Part shown: piece by piece, positions 24,288 to 32,000 of the stretch
Layout of the letters: every line of letters begins with the position of its first letter
Numbering within the stretch: position 1 is the stretch's first letter
NCBI GenBank assembly: GCA_041659405.1
Contig: JBAZYK010000007.1
Location: forward strand, 1-32,000
Reading direction: 5' to 3'
DNA length: 32,000 bases
DNA from: Candidatus Altimarinota bacterium
GTDB taxonomy: Bacteria > Patescibacteriota > Gracilibacteria > UBA1369
The notes under the pieces: generated by a model
The model's database searches: none
The model's input: only the letters and a program-made list of their open reading frames with translations
What the model was told of the DNA's origin: nothing
Made by a program: the position numbers and the translations under genes

Positions 24288-25787
24288 ATGTTGAAAAATA
24301 CTTCTAAATTATTGTTTTTAGCCTTTAGTGTAATGTTTTTGGGAGTTGGTTGTTCTTTGCAACAATCTCAAGTTGCTCAAAATCAAGGGGCGACTCAAAC
24401 ACAAGGAAGTTCACAGGCCAAAAGTTCTGACCAGATTTCTTCGTTAAAACAGGTTTTTCTGGCTGGTGTTCCAAAGGTGGATTTTGCGCATTTGAATCTT
24501 GCGGATTTTCCTTCGGTGGATGAAAGTTATAGCATTTTAAAGCCAATTGTTTGGAATAATAAAGTTTTTGTAAATTCCAATCCTTATATACTTGAATATG
24601 ATTTGAAGGGGAATTTGCTTGAATATGCAAATTTTAACAGTACGGATTGTGGGCGTGATTTGGCATTAATCAATGATTCCTTATATGTGGCGTGCAATGG
24701 AAAAGGGATTTACGAAATTGATCTGAATGCAAATAAAGTTAGTTATTTTTATACTCAAAAAGATGGGCTTAAAGAATTGCGTAATCTTCAATTTGCGGTT
24801 GATGCCGATACTCTTTGGGTAGGGACTTTTGAAGGAGTGGCTAAAATCGATACAAAGGCTCACAAGGCCACAGTTTATGGTAAAGAATTAAATATTGGGG
24901 GAAGTGCGTTTGGTTCTAATGTTTATGCCCATAATGGCCAGGTTTGGGTTGTGGTTGGGTCGAATGCCTATAATAATGGTGGAATATCTAATTACGATAA
25001 GAATGCTGATAAATGGGATACTTATCAGGCCAAAGATCTTAAAGAAAAAGATTTGACCCGTTTGGATGTGATGTATGGCGATTTGATGGTTGCAGATCAA
25101 GGAGTTTATGCGATTTTCCAGGATGGTGGCCCTGAAAATGTTGTTTTAAAAAAGTTTGATTCTGCTCAAAAAAAATGGACGACGGTTTATCATGATGCTT
25201 ATCTTAAATTTAACAAAGGAGTAGCCAAATATTTGCCACCTGTCGAGACTTATAGGAATTTTGATTATGACCTTAATGCTCAAGATAATTCCAGCAGCTT
25301 ATTTTCTACAATTAGAGTTTTCCTTGATGGTAAGTGGGTAAGTGTTCCAATTGTCGCAAAAAAATATGTGACTCTTTCTACGCTTGTAAAAGGGACTTAT
25401 TATCTTTTAAGCGCTTCCGGAATTGATTCTTTTACAGAAGAAGATGCTTTTCCAAAGGCTTTAGTTAAAACTCCTGTTTATGCGCTTGAGGTCGCTCCAA
25501 GATTCTTTGTCACCGGCGATCAAAAGTACGTCGTTTATGTTGCAGTTGATTTTAATGCGTATGGTGGAACCACAGATGCTTATTCTGTAGGAATTTATGA
25601 TACTGAAATTCAGAAATTCTATAATTCCGAAATCAAGAACGAAAAGCAGGCGGCTGATTTTCCTCAGATTGATATTGAGAAAGCTAAATTTAGTATTAAG
25701 GGACAAAAAATTATGCTTCCCGCTGATGGAGACAGAAATTTGGTGATTGATCTTGTAACCAAAAAAGCTGCGTTTGTGAAAAATTAA
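24288..25787 (+). CDS. Secreted protein/putative lipoprotein, function unknown
   Basis: 499-aa ORF with signal peptide ...VMFLGVGCSLQQ (weak lipobox). The body looks beta-rich. Confidence 0.65.
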   Translation: MLKNTSKLLFLAFSVMFLGVGCSLQQSQVAQNQGATQTQGSSQAKSSDQISSLKQVFLAGVPKVDFAHLNLADFPSVDESYSILKPIVWNNKVFVNSNPYILEYDLKGNLLEYANFNSTDCGRDLALINDSLYVACNGKGIYEIDLNANKVSYFYTQKDGLKELRNLQFAVDADTLWVGTFEGVAKIDTKAHKATVYGKELNIGGSAFGSNVYAHNGQVWVVVGSNAYNNGGISNYDKNADKWDTYQAKDLKEKDLTRLDVMYGDLMVADQGVYAIFQDGGPENVVLKKFDSAQKKWTTVYHDAYLKFNKGVAKYLPPVETYRNFDYDLNAQDNSSSLFSTIRVFLDGKWVSVPIVAKKYVTLSTLVKGTYYLLSASGIDSFTEEDAFPKALVKTPVYALEVAPRFFVTGDQKYVVYVAVDFNAYGGTTDAYSVGIYDTEIQKFYNSEIKNEKQAADFPQIDIEKAKFSIKGQKIMLPADGDRNLVIDLVTKKAAFVKN

Positions 25788-26383
25788 TTTCCTGTTTTCA
25801 GTATTCCTTTTTCGCAAATAATTCCCGTAATATCGACGAGTTCTGTAAGATCGTATGCGGGATTTCTTAGCATAATTTTTGAAGGTGCTTTATACCAAAT
25901 TTCCTTTGATGGCCGCGTTTTATTGAGCATCATTTTGGCCTGTTTTTCATTGGCTGATTTTTTCAAACTGGTGCAGGCAAAACTTGGAACTTGAAGCATT
26001 TTGGCAAGTTTGATCATCAAGGTTGTTCCGTTTTTGTTGATGATCTTTTTTGTTGAAGTCAGGGAATCCACGCCAAATAAAAAAAGGTCGGATTGTCGAA
26101 GATTTTGAAGGGCTAAAACATCGACGGTAATCGTTACTGGAATGTTCAATTTTGCCAGTTCTTTAGCCATTATTATGCCTGTAAGATTTGGGCGGGTTTC
26201 ACTGCAAATTACCTGAAAATCTTTTTTTTGAGTTTTGGCTTTTTTGAAGATTTCTAAAACGGTTTGCGAGTAGCAAAAAGTAAAAATGGTCATTCCATCT
26301 TTGATCAGGTCTGCTCCAAGGGCCGAAATTTTTCCCAGTGCCAATGAGGATTTTTTCAATTTTTTAGTTTGAGTTGAAGGCAT
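25784..26383 (-). CDS. Short eIF-2B/MtnA/ribose-1,5-bisphosphate-isomerase family homologue (C-terminal catalytic domain only)
   Basis: 199-aa ORF ...DGMTIFTFCYSQTVLEIF...FQVICSETRPNLTG...FLFGVDSL...INKNGTTLMIKLAK...RNPAYDLTELVDITGIICEKG. It aligns by eye with the Rossmann-like domain of the IF-2B family, including the Cys (TFCYS) and Asp (GVDS) positions. Its start overlaps the trpA stop by 20 nt. Confidence 0.65.
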   Translation of the reverse strand: MPSTQTKKLKKSSLALGKISALGADLIKDGMTIFTFCYSQTVLEIFKKAKTQKKDFQVICSETRPNLTGIIMAKELAKLNIPVTITVDVLALQNLRQSDLFLFGVDSLTSTKKIINKNGTTLMIKLAKMLQVPSFACTSLKKSANEKQAKMMLNKTRPSKEIWYKAPSKIMLRNPAYDLTELVDITGIICEKGILKTGN

Positions 26384-27168: not shown

Positions 27169-28314
27169 TTAAAATTTTAAAATGTTGGCAATTTGATTAA
27201 GGTCTTTATCTCCGCGCCCCGAAAGGTTAACGATTACAACAGAATCAGCTGGAATTTTTCCTGCAAGTTTTTTGGCATAAGCAAGAGCATGTGAAGATTC
27301 CAAAGCCGGAATGATTCCTTCTTCTTTTGCTAAAAGCTGAAAAGCATCAAGGGCTTCCTGGTCTGTAATTGGAACGTACGAAGCTCTTTTTTGATCTTTT
27401 AAAGCGCTGTGTTCAGGCCCAACTCCCGGGTAATCCAAACCTGCAGAAATGCTCTGACTTTCTATAATTTGGCCGTCACTGTTTTGCAGAACGTACGATA
27501 ATGATCCATGTAAAATGCCGGGTTTCCCTTTTTCTAACGAGGCACCTTGCGCGGCTTCAACTCCAATTAATTCCACTTTTGAATCTTTGATAAATGCTGA
27601 AAAAATGCCAATTGCGTTACTTCCTCCACCAACACAGGCAATAATTTTATTTGGTAATTTTCCGGTTTGGGCCAGGATTTGTTTTTTTGTTTCTTCGCCA
27701 ATTACTTTTTGAAAGTAACGGACAATGCTGGGAAAAGGGTGTGGCCCGGCGACTGTTCCAAACAAATAATAGGCATCCTGGTTGTGGGCGACATAATATC
27801 TTAATGCTTCATTGATGGCGTCCTTCAAGGTTTTTGAGCCATTTTGGACGGAGATGACTTCAGCTCCGCAGAGTTTCATGCGTAGGACATTGGCGTGTTG
27901 TCTTTCCACATCTTTGGCTCCCATGAAAATTTTTACGGGGATTCCCAGTAGTGCGCCAGAAAGCGCTGTGGCAAAGCCATGTTGTCCCGCTCCGGTTTCG
28001 GCAATAATTTCTTTTTTGCCCATGTATTTGGCAAGTAATGCCTGTCCAAGCGCATTATTGGTTTTGTGCGCGCCTCCATGCAAAAGATCTTCGCGCTTAA
28101 GATAAAGCTTAAATCCAAATTTTCTGGAAAGATTTTCGGCATAAAATAAAGGGGTTGGTCGACCGGCAAAATTTTGCAGCAAGTCTTTAAGTCTTTGTTT
28201 TTGCTGCTGATCTTTTTTAAAAGCAGCAAAGGCTTTTTCCACTTCTTGCAGAGCGGGAACAAGCATTTCATTTACAAAAATTCCGCCGTAATTTCCAAAA
28301 TAACCTTTTTTCAT
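27169..28314 (-). CDS. trpB: Tryptophan synthase beta chain
   Basis: 381-aa ORF with HGGAHKTNN (PLP lysine region), VGGGSNAIG and [11 protein letters not shown]. Confidence 0.93.
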
Positions 28315-29309
28315 AAAACATTTTGATAATGAGATAATTTTTTCATGAGGTCACTGAAACTTTTTAGATCCAAAGATTGTTGGCCGTCGGATAAGGCTTT
28401 TTGTGGCTCAGGATGAACCTCTAAAATCAGTCCATGCGCGCCAACGGCGTATGAAGCCAAAGAAAGGGGAGTCACCAAAGAAGATATTCCACTGGCATGG
28501 CTTGGATCGGTTATAATTGGTAAATGACTGACTTGTTTGATTAAAGCCACAATATTCAGGTCCAAAGTATTGCGGGTGGCTGTTTCAAAAGTCCTGATGC
28601 CTCTTTCACATAAAATTACATTGGGATTTCCGGCATTAAGGATATATTCGGCGGCAAGTAAAAACTCATCCATTCGCGCTGCCAGGCCACGTTTTAGCAG
28701 AATTGGTTTTTTTAGTTTCCCAACCTCCTGCAGCATTTCAAAATTTTGCATGTTGCGGGCGCCAATTTGAATAATGTCAGTATATTCGGCCACAACATCA
28801 ATATTTTTTACATGTAAAAGTTCGGTGACGATTGGTAACCCAAAGCGTATTTTGGCCTTTTTTAAGAGCTTTAATCCTTCCAGGCCCAATCCCTGAAAAG
28901 CATACGGCGTTGTTCTTGGTTTAAAAGCTCCTCCGCGCAAAATGTGTGCTCCGGCTTTTTTAACGCCTTCGGCGACAGTCATAATTTGTTCTTCGGATTC
29001 AACACTGCATGGGCCGGCCATTACTATAAAATCTTTACCAATTTCGTGCCCTCCAACTTTAATGATGGTGTCTTCATTTTTGAATTCACGACTGACCAGT
29101 TTATAAGGTTTGGTGACGCGAATGATTTCTTTAACTCCGGGAAATCGTCCTAAAGCACTGGCGATTTCATAGTTTTTATCGCCCAAAACCCCGATGGCGG
29201 TGCGGAAACTCCCGGGAATCATCTGCGCTTTAAAACCCAATGATTCAATCTGTTCAACGAGGATTTGAATATCATTTTCTGAAGCATTTTTTTCGAGTAC
29301 AACTAGCAT
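28311..29309 (-). CDS. aroF: 3-deoxy-7-phosphoheptulonate (DAHP) synthase, type I-beta with an N-terminal regulatory domain
   Basis: 332-aa ORF with [18 protein letters not shown] and DPSHASG. The ~65-aa N-terminal ferredoxin-like extension resembles Thermotoga-type enzymes. It overlaps the trpB start by 4 nt. Confidence 0.85.
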
Positions 29310-29336: not shown

Positions 29337-30041
29337 TTAAATTGTGGGAGTGGTTCCTGTAAAAGTTTCCAGTTTTTTTTGAGGATGATCAGAAGTTAAA
29401 AGTGATGTTCCAATCAAAACTCCATCAATTTTGCCTTGATATGGTTTTAGTTCATCTGCAGCGGAAAAAGCACTTTCAATAATGATTGGATTTTTGGTTT
29501 TGATTTTGTCGAGCAAGGAAAGTCCATGATAGACATTGATTTTTAAAGTTTTAAGATCACGATTGTTGATGCCGATGATTATGCCTTCCTGATCAAGTAA
29601 ATCCATGATTTTTTTCAAATCTTCCTCGTCATGAATTTCAATCAGTGGGGTTAATCCTTGGGCCAGGCTATAAGCTGCTAGCTCTTGTAGCTGGTCTTTT
29701 TGAAGGTTGTGGGCAATTAACAAAATTCCGGAAGCACCTGCCTGCACAGTTTGATCAACGTCGTTTTTGCTCGTAAGAAAATCTTTTCGCAGGATTGGCA
29801 GTTTGGTCATTGTTTTGATCTTTTTTAAAAGTTCCAGGCTACCATTGAAACGCAGTTTGTCGCTTATGACAGAGATAGCTCTGGCCCCACCGGCTTCATA
29901 GGCTTTCACCAAATCTGTTTCCGAATGCCTGGTAAAATCTCCGTGACTTGGGGACTTTTTTTTGATTTCAGCAATCACGGAAATCTGATTTTTTCCGGCA
30001 ATGGCTTTATAAAATCCGTAATTTTTGTAGGAATTATTCAT
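29337..30041 (-). CDS. trpC: Indole-3-glycerol-phosphate synthase (monofunctional, no TrpF fusion)
   Basis: 234-aa ORF with VIAEIKKKSPS, ILRKDF, IEIHDEED and IGINNRDL. Confidence 0.88.
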   Translation of the reverse strand: MNNSYKNYGFYKAIAGKNQISVIAEIKKKSPSHGDFTRHSETDLVKAYEAGGARAISVISDKLRFNGSLELLKKIKTMTKLPILRKDFLTSKNDVDQTVQAGASGILLIAHNLQKDQLQELAAYSLAQGLTPLIEIHDEEDLKKIMDLLDQEGIIIGINNRDLKTLKINVYHGLSLLDKIKTKNPIIIESAFSAADELKPYQGKIDGVLIGTSLLTSDHPQKKLETFTGTTPTI

Positions 30042-31620
30042 TGGAAATTTCTTTATAATCTAAAAATTTCTGGTAAGCTTTGCCACTTTTAATTGTTGCT
30101 TTTGCCATCTCCAATCCTGCAGGAATGCTTTTGGATAAACCTCTTACGTAAAGCCCAAAAGCACAATTTATAAGTAATAAATTCTGGAGTGATTCGGGCG
30201 CTTTCCCTTGTAAAAGTAAGTGAAAATATTCAATGTTTTTTTTAAGATCTCCACCGGAAATTTTGGCAAATTCAGTTGCCGACTTAATTCCAAGATCTTC
30301 AGGTTGAAAAATGAATTTTTTGATTTCACCATCTGCAAGTTCAAAACAATAGGTCTTACCATGCAGGGTGACCTCGTCTAAGCCATTTTCAGATGTAACC
30401 ACCATGGCGCGTTTGGATCCTGTTTTTTGCAGTACGGAAATTAATTTTTCGGCGGTTGCTTTTTTGTTTGTGCCAAGAAGCTGATATTCCGGATTAGCAG
30501 GATTAATTAGCGGTCCAATGACATTAAAAATGGTTCTAAAGCCAAGCTGTTTCCGGATTGGCATAAAAATTTTCATGGCTGGATGAAACGCTGGAGCATA
30601 AAGAAAAACTATTCCTAGTTTGCTCATCATCTTTTTTATTTTTTCAGGATTGAGTTGGATGTTGATTCCGAGTCCTTCTAAAAGGTCAAAACTACCGCAT
30701 CTGCCCGAGGCTGCCCTGTTTCCATGTTTGGCAATTTTTACGCCGCAAGCCGCAAGTACAAAGGCTACAGTGGTAGAAACATTCATTCTGGGTAGCCCCG
30801 ATCCACCTGTTCCACACGTGTCCATTAAATCTTTTTCATTAAAGCCAAGATTTATAGCATGATTTTTTAAACTCATCACAGCTCCGGTGATTTCATCGAT
30901 GCTTTCGCCTTTTTGGGCTAGCTTACTCAGAATATCGGCAATTTCATTTTGTGAATATTGGCCATCAATCATGTCATCAAATAATTTTTTGGTTGATTCT
31001 GTTACGTCGTGTTTTTTGCCACTTTTCTTTTGTTGTTGATTTGTGATTTTTAGAAAATTTTCCAGAATTAATTTACCTTCGGGCGTTCCAATACTTTCAG
31101 GATGAAATTGAACTCCAAAAACAGGAAATTTTTTATGTGATATGGCCATGATTAAGCCATCTTTCGTCTCTGCGATAATTTGTAAATCTTTGGGTAAAGA
31201 AGATTTTTCGCCAATTAGAGAGTGATAGCGCATTACCGAAATTTTTTCCGGAAGATTTTTGAAGAGAGCATGTTCACTGTTAATTTTGATCTGGCTTTGT
31301 TTTCCGTGAACTGGCAGCGGTGCGCGAATAACTTTTCCTCCAAACTCATTAATTATTCCTTGGTGTCCCAGGCAAACTCCCAGGAGCGGAATTTTACCCG
31401 AAAAATAATTAATTACGTCCGCGCATATTCCAAAATCCCGCTTATTCCCCGGTTCTCCTGGCCCCGGCGATAAAATAATGTGGGTATATTTTTCTTTTTT
31501 GATATTCTCAATGCTGATTTTATTATTTCGATGTACTTCCGGATTCCCGTTAAGCTCATGACAAAGCTGATAAAGGTTATAAGTGAAAGAATCAAAATTA
31601 TCGATGATAAGAGTTTTCAT
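30034..31620 (-). CDS. trpGD: Fused anthranilate synthase component II (glutamine amidotransferase) / anthranilate phosphoribosyltransferase
   Basis: 528-aa ORF. The N-terminal GATase carries GVCLGHQ and FHPES. The C-terminal TrpD carries DTCGTGG and KHGNRAASGRCGSFDLLE. Confidence 0.9.
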   Translation of the reverse strand: MKTLIIDNFDSFTYNLYQLCHELNGNPEVHRNNKISIENIKKEKYTHIILSPGPGEPGNKRDFGICADVINYFSGKIPLLGVCLGHQGIINEFGGKVIRAPLPVHGKQSQIKINSEHALFKNLPEKISVMRYHSLIGEKSSLPKDLQIIAETKDGLIMAISHKKFPVFGVQFHPESIGTPEGKLILENFLKITNQQQKKSGKKHDVTESTKKLFDDMIDGQYSQNEIADILSKLAQKGESIDEITGAVMSLKNHAINLGFNEKDLMDTCGTGGSGLPRMNVSTTVAFVLAACGVKIAKHGNRAASGRCGSFDLLEGLGINIQLNPEKIKKMMSKLGIVFLYAPAFHPAMKIFMPIRKQLGFRTIFNVIGPLINPANPEYQLLGTNKKATAEKLISVLQKTGSKRAMVVTSENGLDEVTLHGKTYCFELADGEIKKFIFQPEDLGIKSATEFAKISGGDLKKNIEYFHLLLQGKAPESLQNLLLINCAFGLYVRGLSKSIPAGLEMAKATIKSGKAYQKFLDYKEISNE

Positions 31621-32000
31621 ATGATAAGGCTTTTAAGTGGCCCCTTGGCTTTGTTTTGGCATTCTGAATTTTCATTTTTGGGCAGGGAGTCATAAACAAT
31701 TCCTGCGCCTGCTCTTAAGTAAATTTGGCCGTCTTTGTAGAGCATTGTTCTGATTGCTATGGCAAAATCCATGTTTCCGTTGAAGCCAAAATAGCCCACT
31801 GCTCCGCCATAAATTTCTCTTGGTACTTTTTCTAATTTGGCGATAATTTCCATGGCTCTAACTTTTGGCGCACCGGTTAAAGTCCCGGCAGGAAAAGTCG
31901 CCTGGAAAACATCAAAAATCGATTTTTTAGGATCACGGGTTCCGGTGATTTCTGAAACCATGTGCATAACCTGATCGAATTTTTGAATGCTCATAAGGTT
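31617..32000 (-). CDS. trpE: Anthranilate synthase component I, C-terminal part (gene continues beyond the right edge)
   Basis: ...FPAGTLTGAPKVRAMEII...IYGGAVGYFGFNGNMDFAIAIRT...AGAGIVYDS. Its stop overlaps the trpGD start (ATGA). The M at 31994 in the track is internal. Confidence 0.88.
   Translation of the reverse strand, partial: NLMSIQKFDQVMHMVSEITGTRDPKKSIFDVFQATFPAGTLTGAPKVRAMEIIAKLEKVPREIYGGAVGYFGFNGNMDFAIAIRTMLYKDGQIYLRAGAGIVYDSLPKNENSECQNKAKGPLKSLII

Follow-up and report, generated by a model that had tools for sequence, protein, structure and literature searches.

Which protein converts phosphoribosylanthranilate (PRA) into 1-(o-carboxyphenylamino)-1-deoxyribulose 5-phosphate (CdRP) in a bacterium whose trp operon has no trpF? 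This question is raised by a stretch of 32,000 nucleotides from a Candidatus Altimarinota bacterium (GenBank assembly GCA_041659405.1, contig JBAZYK010000007.1, positions 1 to 32,000), in the following called the window. It carries an operon in which trpE, trpGD, trpC, aroF, trpB and trpA are followed by a short gene of the IF-2B/e2b2 family. The original prediction was that this last gene encodes a non-orthologous replacement of TrpF. In our analysis, too, TrpF replacement ranked as the best single explanation of the locus. According to sequence comparisons, the short protein is a candidate PRA isomerase of the trpF-less operon that would have been recruited from an e2b2 enzyme of the type found in DPANN and the Candidate Phyla Radiation (CPR) by N-terminal truncation. 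We hold this reading tentatively, as one that is quite possibly correct. In what follows, G000 denotes the genome of the window (1.51 Mb in 21 contigs, 98.5% complete), C-numbers its contigs, other G-numbers related genomes, L-numbers loci that were read, and f-numbers families of the order.

Tryptophan biosynthesis is among the best-studied pathways, and TrpF, HisA and PriA are textbook models of the evolution of (beta-alpha)8 enzymes. The gene order given above was borne out by profile matches and coordinates. So was the description of trpC as monofunctional at 234 aa, since the Pfam and NCBIfam profiles revealed a match to IGPS (indole-3-glycerol phosphate synthase) and no phosphoribosylanthranilate isomerase (PRAI) domain in the window TrpC. 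The same profile collections place an aroF-type 3-deoxy-D-arabino-heptulosonate 7-phosphate (DAHP) synthase gene in the slot between trpC and trpB, and no trpF in the operon. Nor was trpF found anywhere else in G000. The Pfam profile PF00697 (PRAI) had no match at E<=1 in this genome, while it matched 14 of 14 control genomes. A lineage profile derived from four TrpF sequences of Peregrinibacteria was searched without any filtering (--max) against all G000 open reading frames (ORFs) of at least 60 aa. It did not detect a TrpF, the top match being ribulose-phosphate 3-epimerase (E=0.027). Because trpE, G, D, C, B and A are all present in G000, the conversion of PRA to CdRP is the sole step of the tryptophan pathway without an enzyme. 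A hidden divergent TrpF was rejected as an explanation, as none emerged with Pfam or the lineage profile in G000, nor when the lineage profile was applied at E<=10 to five further genomes without trpF.

A bifunctional HisA/PriA had been named in the original prediction as a possible source of the missing activity. HisA and HisF of G000 are fused into one protein of 491 aa (G000:C2:56563-58038; L002 706-2181). Among the NCBIfam models, the fusion protein scored 401.5 bits with HisA (cut-off 228.95) and 239.9 bits with PriA (TIGR01919, cut-off 306.45). A PriA-type HisA as source of TrpF activity is thus unsupported, the fusion being under the PriA cut-off and G006 having the same trp arrangement without hisA and hisF. 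A third, divergent HisA-like (beta-alpha)8 paralogue of 254 aa is encoded on another contig (G000:C12:50725-51489; L003 1498-2262). It starts with IPAIYILNG, apparently with a Tyr at the position of the usual first catalytic Asp of HisA, and its score of 63 bits is under every NCBIfam cut-off. Homologues of this paralogue were found in G006, in TrpF-positive genomes and in many Peregrinibacteria devoid of trp genes; G040 has none. Since it is common in relatives without any trp genes, it does not track the tryptophan pathway, and it was rejected as a specific TrpF provider.

The short protein matched PF01008 (IF-2B) with 134.4 bits against a cut-off of 22.4. The match is confined to profile positions 88-279 of 280, which means that the N-terminal helical domain is absent and agrees with the earlier statement that only the catalytic domain is encoded. 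The upstream DNA has no room for an N-terminal domain because it is occupied by full-length trpA. Only two PF01008 loci exist in G000, the short gene and a full-length e2b2 gene (309 aa) on contig C18, and this rules out a split gene whose N-terminal part would be encoded at another site. An assembly artefact is excluded as well, as the same truncated gene is found in more than 10 independent assemblies. The coordinates confirmed exactly that the start of the short gene overlaps the last 20 nt of trpA. The intergenic gaps from trpE to the short gene are -4, -8, +27, -4, +25 and -20 nt. The overlapping start suggests that translation of the short gene may be coupled to that of trpA.

Exhaustive HMMER scanning of 1.84 billion representative proteins, together with a profile search of a set of 5.8 billion clusters, yielded about two dozen short proteins of 157-205 aa, which begin just before the Rossmann domain. 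They form a rare subfamily, and all of them are from Candidatus Peregrinibacteria or Peribacteria. Instead of the Cys-His-Ser of full-length enzymes, the short forms have Cys-Tyr-Ser. They fell into two clades within the CPR/DPANN e2b2 sequences of a maximum-likelihood tree. Group A includes the trp-linked window protein and is monophyletic (12 rows; support of 99 in the Shimodaira-Hasegawa-like approximate likelihood ratio test, SH-aLRT); group B comprises 13 rows (SH-aLRT 96). That all short forms arose only once is compatible with the data, the approximately unbiased (AU) test giving p=0.52 and the constrained tree being slightly better. For four closely related group A genes, the ratio of non-synonymous to synonymous substitution rates (dN/dS) was 0.07-0.18.

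The original prediction had suggested examining whether the short gene is syntenic with trp genes in related genomes. Such synteny was seen in all readable relatives and metagenome contigs of its clade. All nine group A members with readable surroundings directly follow trpA with an overlapping or abutting start (window, G006, L061, L062/G155, G160, L078, L079, L080 and G056). In G160 the arrangement was derived from two contig ends with 55 nt in common, which link trpA to the short gene. Furthermore, a basal member of group B (P0066 in L081) is located between trpB and trpA of a trpF-less operon. Taken together, 10 of 14 readable contexts are trp operons, 9 with the gene after trpA and 1 with the gene between trpB and trpA, and trpF occurs in none of these 10 operons. 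The carrier operons vary otherwise: some have aroF and some do not, trpG and trpD may be one fused gene or two, and trpC is fused to trpB in G056. A 197-aa ORF after trpA in G206 was considered as a cryptic relative of the short forms and rejected (hhalign probability 0.1%).

The distribution of these genes was surveyed in 205 species genomes of the order. TrpA was present in 65 and PRAI in 33 of them; both were found in 31 genomes, and TrpA without PRAI in 34. Any short IF-2B form was present in 6 genomes (G000, G006, G056, G155, G160 and G093). All 6 carriers are TrpA-positive and PRAI-negative, compared with a base rate of 34 in 205, and co-occurrence of a short form with PRAI was not observed (0 of 6 carriers). 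The six carriers are not independent because they were drawn from four families, but the association is still clear.

The closest solved structure by sequence is the ribose-1,5-bisphosphate (R15P) isomerase of Thermococcus kodakarensis (TkR15Pi; E=1.5e-24). The Cys (TFCYS) and Asp (GVDS) that had been proposed as catalytic are retained and align with Cys133 and Asp202 of this enzyme. The Cys is invariant in 22 of 22 aligned short forms. In the window protein and in 9 of 9 aligned group A members, the equivalents of Cys133, Ser135, Asp202, Asn212, Lys213, Lys238 and Arg254 are all conserved. In R15P isomerase, Ser135, Asn212, Lys213, Lys238 and Arg254 are the ligand residues located in the C-terminal domain (PMC6423476). 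In the same 9 aligned group A members, His132 is replaced by Phe or Tyr and His134 by Tyr. Group B differs in that Asp202 is replaced by Glu in 13 of 13 rows and Arg254 is lost. The N-terminal domain of R15P isomerase supplies Arg20 and Arg63 and shuts the active site (PMC6423476); this lid and both Arg are lost with the domain in the short forms.

An AlphaFold2 model of the window protein, based on a 94-sequence alignment, was compact and had a predicted local distance difference test score (pLDDT) of 95.8 and a predicted template modelling score (pTM) of 0.91. Compared with the C-terminal domain of TkR15Pi by Foldseek, the model gave a TM-score of 0.89, a root mean square deviation of approximately 2 A and 34% identity. 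Solved structures of eIF2B-alpha with bound sugar phosphates are among the fold matches of the model. As the data on linkage, selection and residues show, the short gene encodes a working protein whose role is tied to tryptophan synthesis.

TrpF, as exemplified by the Thermotoga enzyme, acts on a ribose 5-phosphate substituted at C1, with a Cys as base and an Asp as acid. R15P isomerase likewise turns such a C1-substituted sugar phosphate from an aldose into a ketose by means of a Cys and an Asp. For the short protein, which would have stayed catalytically competent, we infer substrate and activity as follows. The 5-phosphate would be held in the retained pocket of the C-terminal domain by Ser39, by the backbone at positions 40-41 and by the Lys that corresponds to Lys238, and the ribose with its C1 substituent by the equivalents of Asn212, Lys213 and Arg254. 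Cys37 would take the C2' proton and Asp106 would act at the ring oxygen. In this way the C1-substituted ribose 5-phosphate would undergo an Amadori-type rearrangement from aldose to ketose. The disappearance of the lid and its two phosphate-binding Arg, together with the exchange of the His residues for Phe/Tyr and Tyr, may have opened the site for anthranilate in place of the 1-phosphate. TrpD and AMP phosphorylase, which make the substrates of TrpF and R15P isomerase, are homologous, both matching Glycos_transf_3. A TrpF analogue was put first among the explanations because of the linkage to trp genes, the sole missing step, the fitting chemistry, and changes of lid and His residues as expected for the replacement of a C1 phosphate by an aromatic acid.

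Several known systems resemble the one proposed here. R15P isomerases of the e2b2 type (TK0185, PDB 3A11/3VM6; PH0208, PDB 5YFJ) are closest by sequence and fold and share the Cys and Asp as well as the ligand residues of the C-terminal domain. The short protein differs from them by the absence of the N-terminal domain of approximately 110 aa that provides Arg20, Arg63 and closure of the site, by Phe/Tyr-Cys-Tyr-Ser instead of His-Cys-His-Ser, and by a score of 104.6 bits against the TIGR00511 cut-off of 314.1. In its pathway, R15P isomerase is preceded by AMP phosphorylase and followed by form III RuBisCO, whereas the short gene is part of a trp operon, and the AMP-phosphorylase-like gene of G000 pairs with the full-length paralogue (C6/C18) instead. 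Methylthioribose-1-phosphate isomerase (MtnA) belongs to the same Pfam family, follows the same Cys/Asp logic and isomerises a ribose 1-phosphate. However, MtnA has two domains and formed an outgroup clade in the tree, and the short protein reached 57 bits with TIGR00512 (cut-off 279) and 100 with TIGR00524 (cut-off 186).

With TrpF/PRAI the short protein would share the identical reaction, an aldose-to-ketose Amadori isomerisation. TrpF is a (beta-alpha)8 barrel, in contrast to the Rossmann-like IF-2B domain of the short protein, which has no similarity to PF00697. The short protein can thus be at most a functional analogue and not a member of the TrpF family. The loss of trpF in Actinomycetota is described as covered by PriA, a bifunctional HisA/TrpF enzyme (PMC13055916). 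PriA is a homologue of TrpF-like barrels, while the short protein would be a true analogue filling the same gap. Laboratory replacements of TrpF (PMC13643763) illustrate that this step is readily taken over by another enzyme after loss of trpF. These replacements are (beta-alpha)8 barrels of the histidine and tryptophan pathways; they underlie the main rival explanation and set no precedent for the IF-2B fold.

A number of observations weigh against replacement of TrpF by the short protein. Loss of trpF is common in the order, and most of the trpF-less operons cope without a short form, since 28 of the 34 TrpA-positive, PRAI-negative genomes have none. In family f17, the operon of genomes of the G040 type has the order trpE-G-[trpD-trpC fusion]-B-A (e.g. 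L046 4591-10253). G040 was found to lack TrpF, any IF-2B homologue and any protein of the HisA family. The lineage profile gave no TrpF match at E<=10 in G040, G117 and G128, and about ten further f17 genomes had neither an IF-2B match nor PRAI in the survey. Hence, another solution for the TrpF step must exist in the order, and it could act in G000 too. Family f19 has an operon of the window type (TrpB 66-72% identical) with neither TrpF nor a short form. Four group B short forms are located at the end of a cluster of pta, an ORF of 146-176 aa and ackA in Peribacteria, and not in a trp operon. Moreover, the lidless domain may be a poor catalyst. Finally, a Salmonella strain deleted for trpF can be rescued through single point mutations in trpA or hisA (PMC13643763), which makes a promiscuous barrel enzyme a realistic alternative. 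The non-orthologous replacement proposed originally has thus gained from the absence of trpF and from synteny, and has lost ground through the many trpF-less genomes without the short gene and the pta-ackA linkage of the sister clade. Another bypass of TrpF in the order, rescue by trpA or hisA, and the possibility that the f19 arrangement reflects the history of the gene are the reasons why our confidence in the predicted activity remains limited.

One way to accommodate these observations is that the short protein serves tryptophan synthesis in another capacity than as PRA isomerase, the TrpF step being performed by promiscuous TrpA, TrpC or HisA barrels. It might be a regulatory or scaffold subunit that binds sugar phosphates as eIF2B-alpha does and is stoichiometric with TrpA, or an isomerase acting on a related metabolite (such as ribose-1,5-bisphosphate) in phosphoribosyl pyrophosphate (PRPP) or phosphoribosyl salvage near TrpD. 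Operon linkage and translational coupling fit any role related to tryptophan, the C-terminal domain retains each of its phosphate-binding residues, and ligand-bound eIF2B-alpha structures are among the fold matches; the trpF-less operons without a short form and the laboratory mutants of trpA and hisA point in the same direction. The invariance of Cys and Asp in the trp-linked clade across 38-56% identity would, however, be unexpected for a pure binding protein. As to the barrels, G006 has the same arrangement without HisA, and the window TrpA has a canonical Asp-Gly-Pro loop without the laboratory rescue substitutions. A rescue-type TrpA was rejected as a candidate on the latter ground, the pattern being uninformative across TrpF-positive and TrpF-negative genomes. 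We regard a role in tryptophan synthesis other than that of PRA isomerase as unlikely, but as an explanation to be taken seriously.

Alternatively, the short gene may be a truncated paralogue of a salvage e2b2 whose adjacency to trpA is historical, resulting from partial duplication or deletion, and which was kept for salvage or another role outside tryptophan synthesis. A conserved module (e.g. L084 9830-12746) consists of an AMP-phosphorylase-like gene, a full-length e2b2 gene and a dCMP deaminase gene. In f19, this module is located 0.1-3 kb downstream of trpA in G198, G200, G201 and G207, and in G202 by coordinates, which is the arrangement from which such a remnant could have arisen. The non-trp setting of group B short forms after ackA and R15P isomerase as the best NCBIfam model of the short protein are also in favour. 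On the other hand, G000 has the complete module elsewhere, spanning contig ends apart from the trp operon (C6:100641-102035 and C18:2-1708; L007), so that a salvage role of the short copy would be redundant. RuBisCO (PF00016), which would use the ribulose bisphosphate, was not found in the five carrier genomes searched (G000, G006, G056, G155 and G093). Both findings weaken the default assumption of the original prediction that a salvage e2b2 merely sits beside the operon. In addition, the short gene is never followed by a deaminase gene, and a second trp position, between trpB and trpA, is occupied in the phylogenetically separate member in L081. The one genome with an ackA-linked copy that was tested, G093, has its trp operon elsewhere in the genome and is likewise TrpA-positive and PRAI-negative. 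Strong purifying selection and the specific exchange of His for aromatic residues also point to an altered, maintained function. A historical remnant of this kind appears distinctly unlikely. A decaying gene fragment without function, as the half length of the protein and the loss of part of the ancestral active site might suggest, is very improbable: the ORF is intact in more than 20 sequences that are 28-56% identical to the window protein, dN/dS is about 0.1, and the functional residues are invariant. This conservation, the low dN/dS and the confident, compact model exclude a decayed pseudogene.

If the short protein is indeed the PRA isomerase, it would be a new case of analogous enzymes, with an unrelated fold at the TrpF step, and would indicate that deletion of a domain can re-target a sugar-phosphate isomerase. 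It may, with somewhat more reserve, be the first enzyme outside the (beta-alpha)8-barrel superfamily to act as a TrpF analogue, a Rossmann-fold descendant of e2b2 that arose through loss of the lid and aromatic remodelling around the Cys. Full-text literature searches returned nothing that connects IF-2B proteins with TrpF, nor anything on missing trpF in Peregrinibacteria or CPR bacteria. IF-2B enzymes may supply the TrpF step more widely in the CPR, as full-length forms in f19 and as ackA-linked short forms in Peribacteria. About half of the surveyed Peregrinibacteria bearing a trp operon appear to lack trpF (34 of 65 TrpA-positive genomes without PRAI), and automated reconstructions would therefore call them tryptophan auxotrophs. 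Knowing which enzyme closes this gap alters the assessment of how metabolically independent CPR bacteria are. Should TrpF replacement prove wrong, the short IF-2B subfamily with its Cys-Tyr-Ser motif and the widespread trpF-less operons constitute new, well-defined targets.

Table 1. The trp operon and its short IF-2B gene: features and their positions in the window.
Feature	Position	Strand	Remarks
Short IF-2B/e2b2-family gene, candidate PRA isomerase	25784..26383	-	ATG start, 199 aa, C-terminal Rossmann-like domain only
Cys37 codon (TFCYS)	26273..26275	-	Equivalent to catalytic Cys133 of TkR15Pi, phmmer alignment to 3a11
Asp106 codon (GVDS)	26066..26068	-	Equivalent to catalytic Asp202 of TkR15Pi, phmmer alignment to 3a11
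trpA, 259 aa	26364..27143	-	PF00290, 262 bits, Pfam positions 1-232 of 259
trpB, 381 aa	27169..28314	-	PF00291 (PALP), 167 bits
DAHP synthase, aroF type, with N-terminal ferredoxin-like (FXD) domain	28311..29309	-	PF00793 and PF18152; NF006421, 487 bits
trpC, monofunctional IGPS, 234 aa, N-terminally short	29337..30041	-	PF00218, 187 bits
trpG-trpD fusion, 528 aa	30034..31620	-	GATase and Glycos_transf_3 domains
trpE, 3' part	31617..32000	-	Gene extends outside the window to G000:C7:33065

The features of the operon are listed in Table 1. The window TrpB shares 50-76% identity with TrpB proteins of related trp operons. Residues 4-226 of the window TrpC correspond to positions 31-253 of the PF00218 profile. 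In this type of operon TrpC is generally short at the N-terminus (221-245 aa) and appears to be devoid of about 30 N-terminal profile positions of the canonical IGPS. In family f17, the genomes for which the survey found neither PRAI nor an IF-2B match are G040, G113, G115-G117, G110, G111, G120 and G126-G128; in the TrpF-positive members of this family, PRAI is located inside large fusion ORFs. The full-length e2b2 proteins of f19 have Cys-His-Ala instead of Cys-His-Ser. Clusters of pta, ackA and a short IF-2B gene were read at L064 3290-6513, L068 2400-5537, L082 3226-6540 and L083 544-2778, with a spacing between ackA and the short gene ranging from a 4-nt overlap to a 12-nt gap.

A convergent ORF of 499 aa (window 24288-25787, plus strand) has no Pfam match and an N-terminus resembling a lipoprotein signal; at their stops, this ORF and the short IF-2B gene overlap by 4 nt. 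At the other end of the operon, outside the window, a small ORF of the TrpR family (PF01371-like) is located immediately upstream of trpE (G000:C7:33113-33481, minus strand), and corresponding ORFs were seen in L079 (133-375) and L080 (101-343). Its position just upstream of trpE suggests that the operon is controlled by a repressor rather than by attenuation.

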